Positions 1,963 through 9,903 are shown, numbered from the stretch's first letter. The stretch is 64,000 nt of DNA from a virus (IMGVR_UViG_3300042868_005761:64001-128000); one strand, 5' to 3'. The notes: a model not told the origin generated them from the sequence alone. Program-made: numbers and translations.

Positions 1963-3243
1963 ATGGGAATGGTACATCTTCACGCACATAGTTATTATTC
2001 ATTGCTTGATGGCTTACAGCCAGCTGATCAAATGGGCAAGATTGTTGCGTCTAGAGGGATGAATGCAGTTGCTTTGACCGACCATGGATATATGGGTGGC
2101 ATTCCAGAGTTTGTAAAAGGTTGCCGGGCTGCTAATGTAAAGCCTATTATTGGCAATGAGACTTATCTTGCATTTAATGATGCTAAGACTAAGTCTGATT
2201 TTATGCCTGAGAACGGTGTTGCAGAGAAAGCAGTTAACAATGGTCATTTCTTATTGCTTGCTAAGAATGAAGAAGGTTATAAGAACCTAATGAAGCTTAC
2301 TAAGTATTCATATGAGGATGGCTTTTATCGTTATCCTCGCATTGACTTGGAGATGTTTAAGCAGCATGCTAAGGGCTTGATTGCTACTAGTACTTGTATC
2401 AGTAGTCAGTGCTTTAAGTACTGGCACTGGGGTGAACATGCAAAGATTGATAGATGGTGTGATGAAGTTAGAGAGGCAGTCGGCGACGACAGCTTCTTCC
2501 TTGAGCTTCAGCATAACAATGTTGAAAAGCAATATGGCTATAATCAATATCTAATTGATCTAAGTAAGCGCAAGAATATTCCCCTTGTCCTTACTGCAGA
2601 TGCACATCATCAGAACCAAGATCAGTATAAACTACGTAGCTATGTTATGTGTGTGAGTATGCATAAGACTCCAGATACAATGCCATATGAAGTCCAAGAT
2701 CACAATGCTTGGATGTATGATGCCGAATTTGCTAAGAGTTTATGCGACGATTGGCAATTGCCACACGAAGCAATTACTAATACTCAGCATGTAGCAGATC
2801 TTGTAGATGGTGACTACTTTGAAAGAGTCACTAGAGCTCCCAATCTTCAGCTTGAAGGTCTTACTCCGGAAGGCACAAGCTTAATGTTGCTTAAGAAGGC
2901 TAAGGCTGGACTTATAGCTAGACTTGGCGTAGCTACCTGGGCGGATGTTCCTAAGGCATATAAGGATAGAATTAAATACGAGTTCCAAGTCATTGACGAG
3001 GCTCGTTATAGTTCTTATTTCCTTGTCGTTCAGGACTATGTTAGTCTTGCTAAGGGTATGGGTATACCCGTTGGCCCAGCACGTGGTTCTGGTGGCGGAT
3101 CTTTGATCTCATGGTCACTTGGAATCACTGCCAAGCATCTTGATCCTGTTAAGCATGGCTTACTCTTTGAGCGCTTCCTGAATCCTGGTCGAGTAAGAAT
3201 ATCTTTAGACTTCTCAGAGGATATGAAGGAATTAAATGCTTAA
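1963..3243 (+). CDS. dnaE: DNA polymerase III alpha, N-terminal part (PHP domain plus first half of the palm)
   Basis: HLHAHSYYSLLDG, ALTDHG, GNETY, HFLLLAKNEEGYKNLMKL, TADAHH, GPARGSGGGSLISWSLGIT, LLFERFLNPGR, then stops; ATG at 1963 follows AGAGAG. Confidence 0.93.
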   Translation: MGMVHLHAHSYYSLLDGLQPADQMGKIVASRGMNAVALTDHGYMGGIPEFVKGCRAANVKPIIGNETYLAFNDAKTKSDFMPENGVAEKAVNNGHFLLLAKNEEGYKNLMKLTKYSYEDGFYRYPRIDLEMFKQHAKGLIATSTCISSQCFKYWHWGEHAKIDRWCDEVREAVGDDSFFLELQHNNVEKQYGYNQYLIDLSKRKNIPLVLTADAHHQNQDQYKLRSYVMCVSMHKTPDTMPYEVQDHNAWMYDAEFAKSLCDDWQLPHEAITNTQHVADLVDGDYFERVTRAPNLQLEGLTPEGTSLMLLKKAKAGLIARLGVATWADVPKAYKDRIKYEFQVIDEARYSSYFLVVQDYVSLAKGMGIPVGPARGSGGGSLISWSLGITAKHLDPVKHGLLFERFLNPGRVRISLDFSEDMKELNA

Positions 3244-3526
3244 AAATATAAAGATAGATATGCCAGAGGTTCCTTATCGCAACACAATTGCAGAAGAATT
3301 TGTTTACAATACAGAAACTCAAAGCATAGAGTCTCTAAAGGAGTCTTTTATTCTTAAGTCTATATTTAACAAGAAGAACTTCTGGGCTATCAAGCATCCT
3401 TTTTTAATATTACTTGCTTTATTCTTTAGATACATTATGATTAATAACCAAGTATCTAATGCACATCATAAGCGTAAAGAAACTTTACACTTATTTAAAT
3501 CTATTGCCCGTCAATGCTGGAGTTAG
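3236..3526 (+). CDS. Small hypothetical protein with one hydrophobic segment, lying between the dnaE halves
   Basis: 96 aa; ATG overlaps the end of dnaE-N and follows AAGGA; hydrophobic stretch PFLILLALFFRYIMI; stop lies 1 nt before the dnaE-C ATG. Confidence 0.6.
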   Translation: MLKNIKIDMPEVPYRNTIAEEFVYNTETQSIESLKESFILKSIFNKKNFWAIKHPFLILLALFFRYIMINNQVSNAHHKRKETLHLFKSIARQCWS

Positions 3527-3527
3527 A

Positions 3528-5945
3528 ATGTCAATTACTATAGAAAACATACGATCTTTCTTTGACAAGGAAAGGTTGCCAGCTGTTAATAAAGACTATT
3601 TGGAGTTTGAGATTAAGTATCTTACTCCTGAAACTCTAGTATTTATAAACAATGCTTATGATTCACAGAAATCATTGTCTAATAAGTCTAATAGTGCAAT
3701 TCTATATTTGCTTAATTTGTCTGACAATTATAATTCCGATTCACGTATAACTTATAACGTAGACGGCGAAGGTCCAGACATTGACACTGACTTTTGTAAT
3801 GTCCGTGCTGATGATCTAATCAAAGCACTCCAAACTAAATATGGTCATGACCGTGTTCTTCGTGTCTCAACTTATAAGCCATGGTCTCTTAAGACCAGTG
3901 TTAAGGCTTTTACTAAGTTACTCAAGAACGCAGATGGATCATACAGAACTATTGCTGACGCAGAACGTCTTGCTGATAGTTTGCCTGAGAGTCACCGTGG
4001 TAAATACGTAACTTACAAAGAGCTTATCGAAGATAATAGTGAGCACATTAAGAAGATTGTAGAAGCTAATCAAGATATCTTTAGTCTTTGCGGACCAGTA
4101 GATGGCCAAGCTAAGGAAGTTAGCGTTCATGCTAGCGCAGTTCTAATTGGTACAAGTCCAGTAGACCAGATGATTCCAATTCGCAAAAGCAAGACTGAAG
4201 GCGCAGACTGGTTTAATCTTACGCAGTGGGAAGGTCCAACTCTAGAAAAGATGAACTTTATTAAGTTCGATATCCTTAGAATTGACTGTCTTACTATTAA
4301 TGATCTTACCTGTAAGCGTATTGGCAAGTCCCTTAAATGGCTAGAGGAAGAAGTTCCTACTGATGATCCAGCCGTGTTTGAGTTAATCAATAAGGGATTT
4401 ACAGCTGGACTATTCCAGATGGAAGAGACCTATCTCCTAAAGCTTGTAGCTGATCTTAAGCCACAGAGCGTTCAGGATCTTGCAGTTTTCTCAGCTCTTA
4501 ATCGTCCTGGTCCTCGTGACTCTGGTCTTCTCCAAGACTATATTGATTACAAGACAACTAAAGAGACTCAGAATAAATTACATCCCTTGCTTGATGGTAT
4601 ACTTGCTGAGACCGGAGGTGTTCTTATTTACCAAGAACAAATTATGGCAGCATGTCAAATTCTTGCAGGTGTAACCTTACAAGAAGCTGATAAGATTAGA
4701 AAAGCAATGGGCAAGAAGGACGCTATTCTAATGGAGGAGTATCGCACACTTTTTGTGGATGGCTGTGGACGTCTTCATCAGATTAATACTAGCGAAGCAA
4801 CTCGTATATGGAATATCATTGCAGCATTTGCTGAGTATGGATTTAATAAAAGTCATGCTCTTGCTTATGCTTTCATTACATATTTCAATGCATATCTTAA
4901 AACTTACTACCCTACAGACTTTATGCTTACGCTAATGACTGTTAGGAGTGGTAAGCCAGAGAAACTGGTTCGTTATATCAACGAGTATCGGCAGATGGGA
5001 TACAATATTCTTCCACCTAGCATTAACAATAGTGATATTGGTTTTACTAAGTTGGATGATAACACTATCCTATTTGGCCTTGGCATGATCAATGGCATTG
5101 GTAACAAAGCTAGCGATCTTATACTCAAGGCTCGTGGCCGGAAGTCCTTTACAAGCATGGCTGATTTCTTTACTAGAATTAATCGAACAAAGATTAATGC
5201 TGGCGTTGTTAGCATACTTGCAAAGGTTGGTGCCTTTGATAGCTTTGGATATGACAGAGTTAAGCTTGTAGAGAAACTTTCTGATATCTTTGATTACTAT
5301 ACAAAGGTTGAAAACTATCAAACAAGAATAGTTCAAGCTTTTGAACGTAACAAAGAGCTAGATGCTTATCCTGCATTGCTCGATGACTGGACTACCAAAG
5401 TAAAAGCTGGTGTCATTACAGTACAACTAGATTCTGACAGTAAGAAGGTTTACTCTGAACTAAGACCTAAGAAGCCATTGGTACTCAAAGTTCCAGAACA
5501 GCCTGTCTTTCCTGACCTAGAGTCTATCAAGAAAAGTCTGGGATACAAAGTCCCACTTCAAATTGTCAAATGGGAATCTGAATATTGTAAGTTCTTTATT
5601 AGCCGCCATCCTCTGTCCTATATCACTAAGACGCCTCCTGGCATTTTAATTAGTCAAATAGAGGATATAGATGAAACAAATAGTAACGAAGGCAATCTGC
5701 TCGTTGCGGTATCTCATATTAAAGAACAGCAAATTAAAAGTGGTAAATCGAAAGGAAAATTAATGGCAACATTGACAATCGAAGATTTATCTTCTATATC
5801 AGAAGTCACATTGTTCTCAGATCAATATGAAGAATTGAAAGACAAACTTGACTATTGTTCCCTATTATTTTTCCCCTACAAAGCAACTAAGAAAGATGAC
5901 TTCTTACGGATTCGCCCAGTAGGAAAAATTACTTTAATAAAGTAA
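3528..5945 (+). CDS. dnaE: DNA polymerase III alpha, C-terminal part (catalytic Asp motifs, fingers, HhH, OB fold)
   Basis: PDIDTDF (from 3774), SVHASAV, KFDILR, GLFQME, LNRPGP, ETGGVLIYQEQIM, IRKAMGKK, FAEYGFNKSHALAY, FGLGMINGIG, OB fold GKLMATLTIED; GGAG RBS at 3519-3522 supports ATG 3528 over 3459. Confidence 0.93.
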   Translation: MSITIENIRSFFDKERLPAVNKDYLEFEIKYLTPETLVFINNAYDSQKSLSNKSNSAILYLLNLSDNYNSDSRITYNVDGEGPDIDTDFCNVRADDLIKALQTKYGHDRVLRVSTYKPWSLKTSVKAFTKLLKNADGSYRTIADAERLADSLPESHRGKYVTYKELIEDNSEHIKKIVEANQDIFSLCGPVDGQAKEVSVHASAVLIGTSPVDQMIPIRKSKTEGADWFNLTQWEGPTLEKMNFIKFDILRIDCLTINDLTCKRIGKSLKWLEEEVPTDDPAVFELINKGFTAGLFQMEETYLLKLVADLKPQSVQDLAVFSALNRPGPRDSGLLQDYIDYKTTKETQNKLHPLLDGILAETGGVLIYQEQIMAACQILAGVTLQEADKIRKAMGKKDAILMEEYRTLFVDGCGRLHQINTSEATRIWNIIAAFAEYGFNKSHALAYAFITYFNAYLKTYYPTDFMLTLMTVRSGKPEKLVRYINEYRQMGYNILPPSINNSDIGFTKLDDNTILFGLGMINGIGNKASDLILKARGRKSFTSMADFFTRINRTKINAGVVSILAKVGAFDSFGYDRVKLVEKLSDIFDYYTKVENYQTRIVQAFERNKELDAYPALLDDWTTKVKAGVITVQLDSDSKKVYSELRPKKPLVLKVPEQPVFPDLESIKKSLGYKVPLQIVKWESEYCKFFISRHPLSYITKTPPGILISQIEDIDETNSNEGNLLVAVSHIKEQQIKSGKSKGKLMATLTIEDLSSISEVTLFSDQYEELKDKLDYCSLLFFPYKATKKDDFLRIRPVGKITLIK

Positions 5946-5952
5946 GGTTTCC

Positions 5953-7113
5953 ATGAATACAGTTATTTGGCAGAAAGAGGATCTTGATACTTGGATCCCA
6001 GGTACTTTACTTTGTATTAAGTACAATATATCTCGACATACGCTAGAGCGCCTTGCCAAGAGGGGAGCCATAGAAGTACAGAAGGGTGAAAATCCTAAAG
6101 CTACTTCTACCTTGAATAAGATTATTAATTACTATAAGATCCCAAGTAGTAAGAACATCAAGACTAAGAAGATTGGCCCTACTAAGCCAACTGTTATCCA
6201 AGCTCTAGCAAGCGCAGAAGACCCCAAGGATGTCACAAAGGATGTTGAGAAGGCAGGTAGTATACAAGCTTATCTCGATGCCGTTAAGGACGCGAAGGAC
6301 AAGGTCTTCTTAACAAAGAAGGCTAGCACTGCAGAAGCAGCAATTAAGATTCTTAGTTTAAGTGATATTCACTTTCCATTCCAGAACCAAGAAATAATTG
6401 ATGAAGTTATTGAGTTACATAAGGATGCAGACATTCTTGTACTTAATGGCGACTTACTAGATGGTTACGCCGCTAGTAGCTTTGCCAAGGATAAGAATAT
6501 TCCTATGCATCTAGAGTATACAATGGCTTTAGAGTTTGTTCGTAAAGTTTCTGGAATCTTTCCTCAAGTTTATATCGTACGTGGCAACCACGAGCATAGA
6601 CTTGAAAAATACTTTGCTAATAAGATTGATCCGACCATGCAGATGTTTGCATGCAAGGACACTCTGTATTACCTAGCAAAGGGTTATATCCTAGATGAGG
6701 ATGGTGCTCATATTGGCACTGTAGAACTACCAAACGTTATATACAATCCACAGGGTAATCCTTGGATCCTTCAACTAAACAAGACCGTATTTTTACACCC
6801 AAGCACTTATCTTAGCGCTCCTCTCGGCACTGTAGTTAAAGCTTGCGATTATTTGCAAAACTTCCTAGAATGGGATAGTTATGATTGCGTTGTTATGGGA
6901 CATACACATAAGCTGGGTAAGCTTGTCTACAAGGGTAAACTTGTAATGGAACAAGGTTGCTTAGTTAAGTTGATGGACTATCAGCGCAGTGCTAAGTTCA
7001 CAAAGGAAGCAGTTACATTAGGATATGCAGTCGTTTACCAAGACCAAGATGGCAATACATTATTTAACGAGACTGACGTTAAGTATTGCGGAACATTAAA
7101 CTATTTAAAGTAA
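5953..7113 (+). CDS. Calcineurin-like metallophosphoesterase with an N-terminal HTH-like region
   Basis: SDIHFP, NGDLLD, RGNHE, GHTHK; N-terminal YNISRHTLERLAKRGAI resembles an excisionase-type HTH. Confidence 0.85.
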   Translation: MNTVIWQKEDLDTWIPGTLLCIKYNISRHTLERLAKRGAIEVQKGENPKATSTLNKIINYYKIPSSKNIKTKKIGPTKPTVIQALASAEDPKDVTKDVEKAGSIQAYLDAVKDAKDKVFLTKKASTAEAAIKILSLSDIHFPFQNQEIIDEVIELHKDADILVLNGDLLDGYAASSFAKDKNIPMHLEYTMALEFVRKVSGIFPQVYIVRGNHEHRLEKYFANKIDPTMQMFACKDTLYYLAKGYILDEDGAHIGTVELPNVIYNPQGNPWILQLNKTVFLHPSTYLSAPLGTVVKACDYLQNFLEWDSYDCVVMGHTHKLGKLVYKGKLVMEQGCLVKLMDYQRSAKFTKEAVTLGYAVVYQDQDGNTLFNETDVKYCGTLNYLK

Positions 7114-7123
7114 GAGGTACAAG

Positions 7124-7498
7124 ATGATTGAACAAGATAACCTACAAGACAATACCGCAGAGCCCGAGTACAGCGAAGACTTTCTTAAGGGTTCACCTAC
7201 CCGTGAAGAAGTCAATCAATACATGAATAATGTATATATGGCTGTTAACAATAGCGTTGGCCTCTATCAGGGATACATGGTTTCAGCACTAGTTGATACT
7301 CTGGTTGACACTCTTGCTGCTAATGGTATAGCCATTGAGAAGGACAAGTTTATGGCAGAATTCCTTAGACGGAATGGCGAGTTTGCAAAGATTGCAAATG
7401 AAAAGATGAGAGAGATGTCAGACGAAGATCTAGCGTCCCCAGACGCTCAGCCTATGCCTGCTCCTTCTGTTCCTGCACCTGAGATTAAGCTGATTTAA
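7124..7498 (+). CDS. Hypothetical protein
   Basis: 124-aa ORF, GAGG RBS, tightly packed in the operon. Confidence 0.75.
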   Translation: MIEQDNLQDNTAEPEYSEDFLKGSPTREEVNQYMNNVYMAVNNSVGLYQGYMVSALVDTLVDTLAANGIAIEKDKFMAEFLRRNGEFAKIANEKMREMSDEDLASPDAQPMPAPSVPAPEIKLI

Positions 7499-7502
7499 TC
7501 TG

Positions 7503-7536
7503 TTGACATTGTTTTAAAATAGTCTATTATTATAAT
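7503..7536 (+). promoter_or_regulatory. sigma70-type promoter upstream of the tRNA
   Basis: Consensus TTGACA (7503-7508) followed by overlapping TATTAT (7525, 7528) and TATAAT (7531) candidates for the -10 box. Confidence 0.6.
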
Positions 7537-7540
7537 CAAT

Positions 7541-7613
7541 TCTGGCTTAGCTCAGTAGGTAGAGCAAGGGACTGTTAATCCCTGGGTCACAGGTTCGAAT
7601 CCTGTAGCCAGAG
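7541..7613 (+). tRNA. tRNA-Asn (GTT), CCA not encoded
   Basis: Cloverleaf: acceptor TCTGGCT/AGCCAGA, D stem GCTC/GAGC, anticodon stem AGGGA/TCCCT with loop CTGTTAA (GTT at 7574-7576), T arm ACAGG-TTCGAAT-CCTGT, discriminator G. Confidence 0.97.
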
Positions 7614-7640
7614 CTGATTATCTATATTTTAAGGAAAACA

Positions 7641-8822
7641 ATGGCGAAGAAACCAAAGAAAGATACAAAGGTTTCATTCCCAAGCTTAGAACATAAATTT
7701 TCCTTTTGGGGCACACTAGATCGAAGTATTGCTAATCAACCTAGCAGAATTCGTCCAGATATTAATCTGTATCCCAGTGAGGCAAGCGCTAAAATTAAAA
7801 ACGAGCACAACGAAGATATAATTATCGGCGGTTGTGTTCGCAAGTCATGGTTCAGAGCTATGATTCAGCGCATGGAAGCTACCAGCATCAAGCCTAATCT
7901 TGATCATGTGCTAGCTGCTGAACCTTTTACCCCGAAGGAACTTTGGAAGTTTTCATTAAGTAAGTACGCAGAAATAGCAATTACTGATGAAAGCAAAAGA
8001 GCTTGTGTATATGAAACAAATAGTCTTAGATTTAAATGGGAACTTCCATTCCCGTATAAATTATTGAAACCAGTAATTAGTGGTGAATTAGATCTTGCAG
8101 TTACAATACCTGACAAAGAAGACTATGAACTCCCAACCTTTGATCGAGACGGCAATCCTTCAATAACTTCTAGTGATATTAAGACTAATAACATTGTTGG
8201 CATTGAGATTAAAAGTATCTCAGGATACAAAGGACCTCGACAAGTATTTGGAGTAAAGAGCAAGAAAGGCCACTGGATTAGTTTACCTGAGCCAAAGCCT
8301 GAGCATTTACTTCAGTCAATCCTTTACCATATGTATTTCTGTATTCTTAAAAAGGAATATAGATACTGGAAGCTTGCATATATCAACCGTGAAAACGGTG
8401 AGCGAAAAGAATTTGATATTGATCTTATAAAAGAGAAAGTCGCAAATGGTAAGTTCTTACATAGAGTTTACGTAGACAGAGAGCCATACAAGCATGTCTT
8501 GTATGCCGAACATATACTTCAACGCTATCAGGAACTTCATACTCACTTAGAGAATGAAACACTTCCAAACAGAGACTTCGAACTTTTCTATGATCAAACT
8601 AAAATAGCGATCTTAGCTAGCAGAAAAGAATTATCTAAGATGGACACAGAGCTTTTTGACAAAGGCAAGAAAGTCAAGAAAGGTGATTGGAATTGCAGCT
8701 ATTGTCCATTCAAGAATATATGCTATGAAGCCAATGGTACTCCTAGAGATTTAACGAAATTGGATGTTACTGACATAGAAAGAATTAGCACAATGGAGGG
8801 TTCCGATGAAGAAGACGAATAG
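7641..8822 (+). CDS. Cas4/AddB-like PD-(D/E)XK exonuclease with a probable Fe-S cluster
   Basis: YPSEAS..GGCVRKSWF, SGELDL, GIEIKS, QSILY, C-terminal CSYCPFKNIC (1+3 Cys arrangement). Confidence 0.8.
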   Translation: MAKKPKKDTKVSFPSLEHKFSFWGTLDRSIANQPSRIRPDINLYPSEASAKIKNEHNEDIIIGGCVRKSWFRAMIQRMEATSIKPNLDHVLAAEPFTPKELWKFSLSKYAEIAITDESKRACVYETNSLRFKWELPFPYKLLKPVISGELDLAVTIPDKEDYELPTFDRDGNPSITSSDIKTNNIVGIEIKSISGYKGPRQVFGVKSKKGHWISLPEPKPEHLLQSILYHMYFCILKKEYRYWKLAYINRENGERKEFDIDLIKEKVANGKFLHRVYVDREPYKHVLYAEHILQRYQELHTHLENETLPNRDFELFYDQTKIAILASRKELSKMDTELFDKGKKVKKGDWNCSYCPFKNICYEANGTPRDLTKLDVTDIERISTMEGSDEEDE

Positions 8823-9903
8823 CAACTCGGTAGTTAGTCTGAATACATTAGTTCCTAAGAAAACAAGGAACTATACACTCAGTCTTGAGCCTCGAATCTC
8901 TGACTCTTCTTCTGTAATCTATGGAATGGAAAAGGATAGTATTGCTTATCTTAGCGACTACATTAAAAACCATCCTAGAATGAAAGATGCCGAGATGCAT
9001 CGTCTTGCTTGTAAATACTTCTACTTGAAGCAGCAGTATACACATTTAAAAGACCGCTTAGGTGCTGTTGAACTTAAACTAGAATCACCCAATGACGCTA
9101 TAACAACTAGTCTTTTAGTTGCCGAGAAAGAAGAGTTATCTTATCTTCTAGAATTAATTCCATACAAGGAAGTTTTTCTAGAACTAGAAGAGACTCTAGT
9201 CGCACATAATCTTCGTTTGATAGTGAAAATTGCAAGTAGCTATGGCGGTAAAGGATTATCTGTCGATGACCTAATACAAGAAGGTGTCTTTGGGTTTATG
9301 TATGCAATAGATAGATATGACCCAAACAAAAACGTTAAACTCGGAACATATGCGACTTGGTGGATTAAGCAGAAGATTACTCGTGCTTTGTCTAATAAAG
9401 CTAGATTAATTCGCTTGCCAGTCCATCTAACAATTGATATAACTAAAGTCCTTGGAGCAATACGGAAACATAATATTCCTTACTCTAGTAAGAATATTGG
9501 TAAACTTTCTAACCTTACCAGGATGAAAGAGTCAAGTGTTTCTCATGCCTTTGGTTATATTTATAGCTATACACCATACAATCAGATTGCCTTATACAAT
9601 AATGATCAGGCATTTTCTGAAGATCCGATGACACTTATAGTGGACAAGGAAAAGAAAGATGAACAAATCGAAGATGTAAATTTGAACTTAGATCAAAAAA
9701 CTTTTTGTTCTAATTTCTCTTCGGTAATTGACAAATTGAATACTCTTGAACAAGAGTTCATCTATAGAAAATATGGTATTCAAGGCTACAATGAGCATAC
9801 TCCAATTGAAATAAGAGAATGGCTTAAGAGTGTTAATATTAAACAACCTATCTTTTTTAAGAAAACTGTTCTTATAAAGATAGCTACTGAAATACTAAAA
9901 TAG
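8806..9903 (+). CDS. sigma70-family RNA polymerase sigma factor (RpoD/RpoS-like region 2)
   Basis: LVAHNLRLIVKIA, DLIQEG, AIDRYDP, TYATWWIKQKITRALSNKARLIRLPVH; region 4 diverged. Confidence 0.92.
   Translation: MKKTNSNSVVSLNTLVPKKTRNYTLSLEPRISDSSSVIYGMEKDSIAYLSDYIKNHPRMKDAEMHRLACKYFYLKQQYTHLKDRLGAVELKLESPNDAITTSLLVAEKEELSYLLELIPYKEVFLELEETLVAHNLRLIVKIASSYGGKGLSVDDLIQEGVFGFMYAIDRYDPNKNVKLGTYATWWIKQKITRALSNKARLIRLPVHLTIDITKVLGAIRKHNIPYSSKNIGKLSNLTRMKESSVSHAFGYIYSYTPYNQIALYNNDQAFSEDPMTLIVDKEKKDEQIEDVNLNLDQKTFCSNFSSVIDKLNTLEQEFIYRKYGIQGYNEHTPIEIREWLKSVNIKQPIFFKKTVLIKIATEILK

Follow-up and report, generated by a model that had tools for sequence, protein, structure and literature searches.

In the uncultured phage represented by the 176-kb IMG/VR record IMGVR_UViG_3300042868_005761, the C-family DNA polymerase DnaE is encoded by two adjacent genes, here called dnaE-N and dnaE-C, which lie in the 64,000-nucleotide stretch that was analysed (bases 64001-128000 of the record, referred to below as the window). 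The break leaves the triphosphate-binding motif on one product and the catalytic metal-binding strand on the other; it is conserved in relatives of the phage and carries no signal of an intein or an intron. We infer that the two products form a heterodimer whose active site is assembled in trans, that a tail on the first chain and a leader on the second form a clasp between them, and that both extensions arose by a duplication within the palm domain. Taken as a whole, this reading appears quite likely. The analysis was wholly computational and drew on comparisons of sequences, profiles, folds and co-folded models.

Gene structure and the distribution of catalytic residues

The coding sequence of dnaE-N (1963-3240) is closed by a TAA stop at 3241-3243, and the C-terminal end of its product after the RGS motif reads ...FERFLNPGRVRISLDFSEDMKELNA, terminating 17 residues past ...FLNPG. 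The ATG of dnaE-C at 3528 stands in a different frame, and 82 residues precede the PDIDTDF motif of the protein. In place of the one continuous polypeptide expected of a DnaE there are thus two open reading frames (ORFs), separated by a stop, an ORF of 96 amino acids (aa) and a new ribosome-binding site (Table 1). The initial annotation of this locus had already described the two DnaE ORFs, the change of frame, the GGAG site and about 80 extra residues, all of which stand, but it had left out the 96-aa ORF. Neither promoter-like sites above shuffle expectation nor terminator-like sites were found in a scan between the halves.

The domains of a full-size DnaE are distributed over the two products. 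Pfam finds in dnaE-N the PHP domain (PF02811, E=9e-41), with all nine metal-ligand positions present (H5, H7, D16, H41, E66, H95, C145, D213 and H215), followed by profile positions 5-109 of PF07733. Positions 101-259 of the same profile are found in dnaE-C, together with PF17657 (E=7e-43), PF14579 (E=3e-23) and a weak match only to an OB domain (PF01336, E=0.063). PF07733 is divided between the proteins with about nine positions of overlap, and these fall on the catalytic strand. The same picture was obtained with phmmer against the structure of Mycobacterium tuberculosis DnaE1 (5lew), in which residues 3-417 of dnaE-N match 4-420 and residues 82-299 of dnaE-C match 413-634. Here ISLDF, near the end of the N protein, is placed opposite IDIDF, and the DxD strand of the C protein opposite PDIDIDF. 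Because the alignments of both proteins to 5lew and PF07733 reach the catalytic strand, the two overlap there. The alignment to M. tuberculosis DnaE that the initial annotation had proposed places both halves colinear with the single chain.

The residues required for catalysis are kept on both sides of the break. The RGS motif of the N chain is accompanied by R404, F405, N407, G409 and R410, which are likewise invariant among 22 N-halves recovered from databases, and D84, D86 and D88 of the C chain are invariant among 44 C-halves. Further along the C chain lie K246 and D248, which we take to correspond to E. coli K553 and to D555, the third catalytic aspartate. Of the features by which a DnaE is recognized, a PHP domain at the N-terminus, a Pol-beta-like palm that has its GS motif and its three catalytic aspartates, fingers and a helix-hairpin-helix (HhH) domain are present, with the palm spread over two chains and the OB domain detected only weakly. 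An AlphaFold 2 (AF2) model of dnaE-C residues 1-300 reached a mean predicted local distance difference test (pLDDT) score of 86.6 and was aligned to 5lew by VIA with a Z of 13.5 and a root-mean-square deviation (rmsd) of 3.6 A over 179 aligned residues. Between the window and a close relative (contig L005) the last 100 codons of dnaE-N differ by 32 synonymous and 7 non-synonymous changes, and both halves are under purifying selection.

The genome is estimated to be 100% complete (CheckV), and no family A or family B DNA polymerase was detectable in it by family searches (PF00136 gave no match). The split DnaE is therefore the sole recognisable DNA polymerase of the phage, and must for that reason work. 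No beta-clamp gene of the phage was found above threshold in the genome.

Table 1. Features of the split dnaE locus, with positions counted in the window (NTP, nucleoside triphosphate)
Feature	Position	Strand	Basis or conservation
dnaE-N, 426 aa: PHP domain and first (NTP-binding) part of the palm	1963..3243	+	Pfam, phmmer
R374-G375-S376, GS (triphosphate-binding) motif, N chain	3082..3090	+	invariant in 22 N-halves
N tail, RVRISLDFSEDMKELNA: putative degenerate copy of the catalytic strand, predicted inter-subunit strand	3190..3240	+	HMMER, co-folding
Intervening 96-aa ORF, no assigned family	3236..3526	+	overlaps dnaE-N stop, ends 1 nt before dnaE-C start
GGAG ribosome-binding site of dnaE-C	3519..3522	+	read from sequence, 5 nt before ATG 3528
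dnaE-C, 805 aa: leader, DxD strand, thumb, remaining palm, fingers, HhH, weakly OB-like C-terminal region	3528..5945	+	
82-residue leader: putative copy of the first palm subdomain, diverged and catalytically disabled	3528..3773	+	profile, fold
D84-I-D86-T-D88, catalytic metal-binding strand, C chain	3777..3791	+	HMMER match to 5lew
K246-F-D248, C chain	4263..4271	+	conserved in 90% or more of 44 C-halves

The tail and the leader as probable copies of the junction

The short tail that follows the last canonical residues of dnaE-N carries a motif, x[IV]xLDFsxDL, that is kept in most of the 22 N-halves, with P0021 and P0028 diverging from it. Over the last 22 codons of the gene (3175-3240) the window and its relative L005 differ by 9 synonymous and 5 non-synonymous changes. 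From the sequence comparisons we conclude that the tail probably derives, by divergence, from a copy of the first part of the DxD strand. The initial annotation had read ISLDF as a decayed DIDxDF by eye, and the HMMER pairing with IDIDF together with the conserved tail motif bears this out.

The leader of dnaE-C matches no Pfam or PHROGs family, and a word-based protein search with it returned no match. A hidden Markov model built from a seven-sequence leader profile was run exhaustively over 1.84 billion representative proteins. It recovered 68 clusters (24 with E<=1e-10); the match always occupied protein residues 1 to about 99, and in none of the 68 did the leader lie inside a full-length DnaE. 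The consensus reads ..DxDFLxFEE..EDL.LI...L.NPHNSILLYxTGLTDxFDFxKxRSDTIGGSPPDIDxDF, with E28, N52, N55, S56 and G80 invariant.

When a 75-sequence leader profile was compared by hhalign with a 106-sequence profile of the canonical palm segment, a colinear local alignment of 49 columns was obtained with a score of 26.1 (P = 4.3e-4). None of 150 column shuffles reached this score (11.4 +/- 2.2, maximum 19.8) and the reversed profile scored 10.0. In this register DfLeFE stands opposite RLeYEL, and NphNSiLLYxtGLTDeFDf opposite GRGSaaGSLVayxLGITxiDPik; it is the register in which the initial annotation had recognized a decayed palm copy, and it is also the best local alignment when the leader is compared with the whole N-half. 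The fold comparison points the same way. The leader is modelled with a pLDDT of 91-97 within dnaE-C 1-300 and of 80.8 when modelled alone, and in an exhaustive VIA search of the leader-alone model against 48,161 PDB representatives ranks 1-7 were all taken by C-family polymerases (5lew, 7pu7, 9qpc, 5m1s, 5fku, 3f2b and 2hpi, with Z from 5.1 to 3.0). All seven were aligned from the start of the palm, the range in PolC (3f2b) being 827-932, which presumably lies ahead of the PolC catalytic aspartates. Foldseek with the same leader-alone model gave no match at E<=0.001. The leader is, in our estimation, fairly likely to be a diverged copy of the first palm subdomain (about residues 306-417 of the N chain) from which the RGS motif has been lost, and the evidence for a duplication origin is moderate.

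A predicted complex of the two halves

The N protein (alignment A4) and residues 1-300 of the C protein (alignment A3) were co-folded. The predicted complex has an ipSAE of 0.87, against 0.00 for the best control; 58 of 80 solved complexes attain this mark, as do 2 of 110 mismatched pairs. The co-folding runs share at least 96% of their contacts, and the partners have a pLDDT of at least 83. Residues 368-370 of the N chain, the IPV strand just ahead of the RGS motif, contact F89 in the DxD strand of dnaE-C, and so the canonical palm sheet forms in trans in the model. The predicted interface includes residues 410-421 and 423-424 of the N chain and residues 27-59 of the leader, while tail residues 413-416 contact leader residues 76-77 in a pairing of RISLDF with RITYNV. 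Both the active site assembled in trans and the pairing of RVRISLDF with RITYNV had been put forward in the initial annotation, along with the expectation that a predicted N-C complex would reconstitute the palm, and all of this appears in the model. The co-folding result is to be taken as a likeness and not as binding, the tail-leader contact alone being without a counterpart in solved structures.

Searches for inteins and introns

No intein or Hint family of Pfam matched dnaE-N, dnaE-C or the leader, and the lack of intein motifs noted at the outset is thus upheld at the level of profiles as well as of single residues. The first tail residue is not conserved as Cys, Ser or Thr across the 22 N-halves, and the residue preceding PDID is G, A, S or P, again not a conserved Cys, Ser or Thr. 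Tail and leader together come to about 95 aa, which is too small for a HINT fold. Besides a first-residue nucleophile, the HINT motifs comprise TxxH and a closing HN with Cys, Ser or Thr after it. By eye the tail bears some likeness to intein block A, and HNS in the leader to an intein C-terminus; this split-intein reading was rejected, as there is no conserved nucleophile, the parts are too short and no HINT match was found.

The Rfam group I intron model (RF00028) found no match at E<=10 in 2800-4200, nor did any other Rfam family. This negative carries weight because the same model detects, with scores of 61-87 bits, five group I introns in the dnaE-C genes of relatives, two in L015 (5001-9712) and three in L013 (5001-10032). 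Several of these introns adjoin LAGLIDADG endonuclease ORFs, and some carry them. The first intron in these relatives lies right after ...GGSPPD and leaves "leader-only" gene calls of 80-98 aa; the intron lies within the catalytic DxD codons, which are also a target of group I introns in relatives. Since opposite-strand genes stand between the halves in three relatives (three genes in L012, six in L015 and six in L016), cis-splicing and translational bypass are ruled out for the family. Read-through of the TAA in the dnaE-N frame lengthens the PF07733 match to position 131, but the added stretch is unconserved in the second clade of close relatives, and the extension was judged to be due to chance.

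Recurrence in relatives and evolution of the split

The same three cistrons are present in six independent IMG/VR contigs, which fall into two clades and whose dnaE-C proteins share 87-98% identity across their first 291 residues; the protein sequences of tail and leader are kept in all six despite many synonymous changes. Since the layout is present in these contigs and in more distant metagenomic ones, it is not an assembly artefact, and the survey for the same breakpoint that the initial annotation had called for turned out positive for these contigs. A protein search with dnaE-N yielded the 22 N-halves, of 396-440 aa and with identities down to 37%, all of which stop soon after FERFLNPGR. 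"Partial" labels on DnaE fragments of similar length in that search suggest that such halves may be mislabelled as truncated dnaE genes. A 407-aa protein from Patescibacteria that is labelled DNA polymerase III alpha (P0025) ends ...LLFERFLAIQEKFYITKKDFGIHD and diverges from DnaE very near the break described here, which may mean that the site was interrupted independently.

What lies between the halves is far more variable than the halves themselves. The 96-aa ORF, which has a hydrophobic stretch (PFLILLALFF), exists in contigs L003-L008 and is fast-evolving, its identity between the two clades being 28-32%, whereas the N-terminal parts of dnaE-C from these clades are 87-88% identical. The slot holds an ORFan of 185 aa in L009 and one of 181 aa in L010, unrelated to each other and to the ORF of the window, and nothing in L011; the slot ORF is for this reason not a conserved part of the enzyme. 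Pfam and PHROGs matched no family to the intervening ORFs of the window, L005, L009 and L010. It is possible that the slot ORF is a decayed or unrecognised homing endonuclease, as in "genes in pieces". In the 116-kb relative L011, dnaE-C is covered by three consecutive gene calls that overlap (418, 197 and 185 aa, at 5793-8108), which could be further natural breaks or frameshift errors.

In a tree with 45 cellular DnaE sequences the 22 N-halves stand on one side of a branch with a support of 100. A syntenic 160-kb relative (L017:4001-7366, with the order DUF2201-PhoH-dnaE...sigma70) carries an unsplit DnaE of 1,121 aa, P0189, which has an ordinary junction, ...FERFLNKERNDFPDIDLDF..., with neither tail nor leader. 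P0189 joins the main split clade at a support of 100, the base of that clade being an unresolved three-way fork. Because a leader profile search shows the leaders of both split lineages to be homologous, a single origin of the split with later re-fusion is the more economical account, the root of the tree not being fixed; on these sequence comparisons P0189 may represent such a re-fusion. No cultured phage with a leader was found, as tblastn of two leaders against 50,697 phage records gave no match and the DnaE matches to a C-half in these records begin no earlier than query residue 86. Megablast of the region against the phage records gave no match either.

The genes around the locus are also conserved in relatives. 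Upstream (1-1869 of the window) are RecA, a DUF2201/vWA-like protein and PhoH, and downstream (5953-9903) a Mre11-like metallophosphatase, a 393-aa protein and a sigma-70-type factor.

A proposed mechanism and its alternatives

The replicative polymerase of this phage would be an obligate heterodimer of two gene products, with one active site built from two chains without splicing. From dnaE-N would come the PHP domain, which is likely to be an active proofreading nuclease, together with that half of the palm which binds NTP and has the RGS motif and R410; dnaE-C would supply the DxD strand, the third aspartate and the lysine, the thumb, the fingers and the DNA-binding domains. The arrangement most probably arose by a partial tandem duplication of about 115 palm codons, followed by fission inside the duplicated stretch, such that each half retained one working copy and one copy stripped of its catalytic residues: the N tail, RVRISLDF..., and the 82-residue C leader. 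In the assembled enzyme the tail strand would lie against the leader strand RITYNV just before the DxD motif, and the leader helices would pack on the N half. The disabled copies probably clamp the two halves together, and it is proposed that they are conserved because they now do so. That the split serves to gate polymerase activity is speculation. A related and unlikely scenario, also starting from a tandem duplication, makes the leader a placeholder that, in the free C-half, fills the site of the missing NTP-binding subdomain and so holds this half in a folded, inactive state. The N protein would displace it on docking, the displaced leader would join the clasp, and assembly would switch on both polymerase and proofreading; P0189 would then be a reversion, perhaps by collapse of the repeat.

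Several observations weigh against the heterodimer with duplicated junction copies as proposed here. Because the partners come from one split gene, the complex score is partly a "memory" of single-chain Pol III alpha structures, from which most of the interface may be carried over. When dnaE-C is modelled by itself, some alignments set the leader roughly over the canonical first palm subdomain (rmsd 7.1 A), which makes its position in the real complex uncertain. As for the origin of the leader, neither BLASTP (leader against dnaE-N) nor Pfam detects a similarity, the hhalign probability is 34% at best, P is only 0.04-0.06 against the full N-half, and the fold Z-scores (<=5.1) are low and striking by their ranking alone. 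These last points, and the absence of any single-chain protein with the duplication among the leader-profile matches, would suit a real heterodimer whose tail and leader evolved anew as extensions for docking and look like the palm only through convergence or chance. This is rather improbable, given that the 49-column alignment in the predicted register beats all 150 shuffles, that the top seven of 48,161 chains are C-family polymerases aligned from the palm start, that HMMER pairs the tail with IDIDF, and that the leader immediately precedes the DxD strand, just as the segment it would copy does in canonical DnaE. The overlay of the leader on the palm bears rather on the idea that dnaE-C is self-sufficient, the leader replacing the NTP-binding subdomain in cis, with dnaE-N mainly a separate PHP proofreading subunit. 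The confident model of the leader in the C protein alone, the invariance of N55 and S56 and two alignments of the leader, one covering E. coli alpha 315-400 and the other beginning at residue 356 of Taq alpha, are in its favour. We nevertheless hold it very unlikely, since the leader lacks the RGS motif and FERFLNPxR, whose invariance in the N-halves would be unexpected if they were redundant, the predicted complex sets the IPV strand of the N chain beside the DxD strand, and the high rmsd just mentioned belongs to the alignments in which the leader takes part.

Two further explanations would take the tail or the break itself in another direction. The tail (RISLDF) has a loose likeness to QxxLxF motifs and might be a beta-clamp-binding peptide instead of an inter-subunit strand, in which case the host clamp would be needed, the phage having no clamp gene of its own above threshold. 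This is most improbable, as the 22 tails show no conserved Gln in first position, the hydrophobic residues alternate as in a beta strand, and the tail residues of the predicted N-C interface have a low expected error. Rejoining of the halves by protein trans-splicing, RNA splicing or translational bypass has precedents in phage dnaE genes broken by split inteins with an intervening gene (PMC2677866) and in the group I introns of relatives' dnaE-C. It is barely conceivable here in view of the missing HINT match and nucleophiles, the small size of tail and leader, the empty Rfam search that had found five introns elsewhere, and the opposite-strand genes that separate the halves in L012 and L015.

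Comparison with known systems

Divided dnaE genes have long been known from cyanobacteria, where two dnaE genes carry a split intein (Wu, Hu and Liu 1998, as cited in PMC2677866), and metagenomic data later yielded "fractured" dnaE genes with split inteins and a free-standing gene between the halves, whose integration points are distinct among themselves and do not coincide with the one in cyanobacteria (Dassa et al. 2009, PMC2677866). The window shares with the former the two genes and with the latter the free-standing gene between the halves. Set beside the phage by description, the split-intein genes have all HINT motifs, N parts of 88-105 aa, and products that are ligated to one chain; the phage has no intein motifs, its intervening ORFs match no endonuclease family, and its product would have to stay two chains. 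A survey of about 2,000 bacterial genomes mentions solely intein-split or frameshifted dnaE fragments (PMC3919608), and a full-text literature search found no description of the present layout.

Intein-less division is known from family B polymerases and other "genes in pieces", such as PolB of M. thermautotrophicus, gp43 of some T4-like phages and NrdA of Aeh1 (as cited in PMC2677866). As described there, these resemble the present case in that an essential replication enzyme consists of two non-covalently associated polypeptides, with the break sometimes tied to an inserted gene. The cases so described belong to other polymerase families and folds. To our knowledge, none of them is described as having a junction segment that is duplicated and overlapping.

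With the canonical single-chain DnaE1 enzymes (M. tuberculosis 5lew and 7pu7, T. aquaticus 2hpi, E. coli 5fku) the phage halves are colinear in all domains and catalytic residues, the difference being that the phage chain is cut between the region of the GS-motif helix and the DxD strand, with a 17-aa tail and an 82-aa leader added. Replicative C-family polymerases are treated as single-chain catalytic subunits, whereas this phage lineage would build its active site from two, with the nucleotide-binding motif on one chain and the metal-binding aspartates on the other. The overlapping copies would show in concrete terms how an essential gene might be divided while passing through no lethal stage: the junction is duplicated, the break occurs inside the duplication, and the spare copies become the interface. 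The phage may thus provide a natural two-part polymerase for the study of assembly-dependent activity.

The nearest system in the literature is the "minimal" Pol III alpha of the group 2.2 (T4-like) jumbo phages, which exists as two standalone proteins without an intein (Iyer et al. 2021, Viruses 13:63, PMC7824862). There the cut separates an N-terminal NTP-binding from C-terminal Mg2+- and DNA-binding subdomains, and reconstitution of one enzyme was predicted computationally (PMC7824862). The likeness is close, as both are intein-less C-family splits between the NTP-binding and Mg2+-binding subdomains (PF07733 5-109 and 101-259 in the window). According to its description, however, the minimal enzyme is without PHP and the other Pol III domains and stands beside a family B polymerase, and its genes lie far apart, whereas the phage described here has a polymerase of full size (with PHP, fingers and HhH, the OB domain being weak) that is its sole recognisable one and is encoded by adjacent genes. 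Compared by the description in PMC7824862, it differs also in carrying on each half a conserved, disabled copy of the junction.

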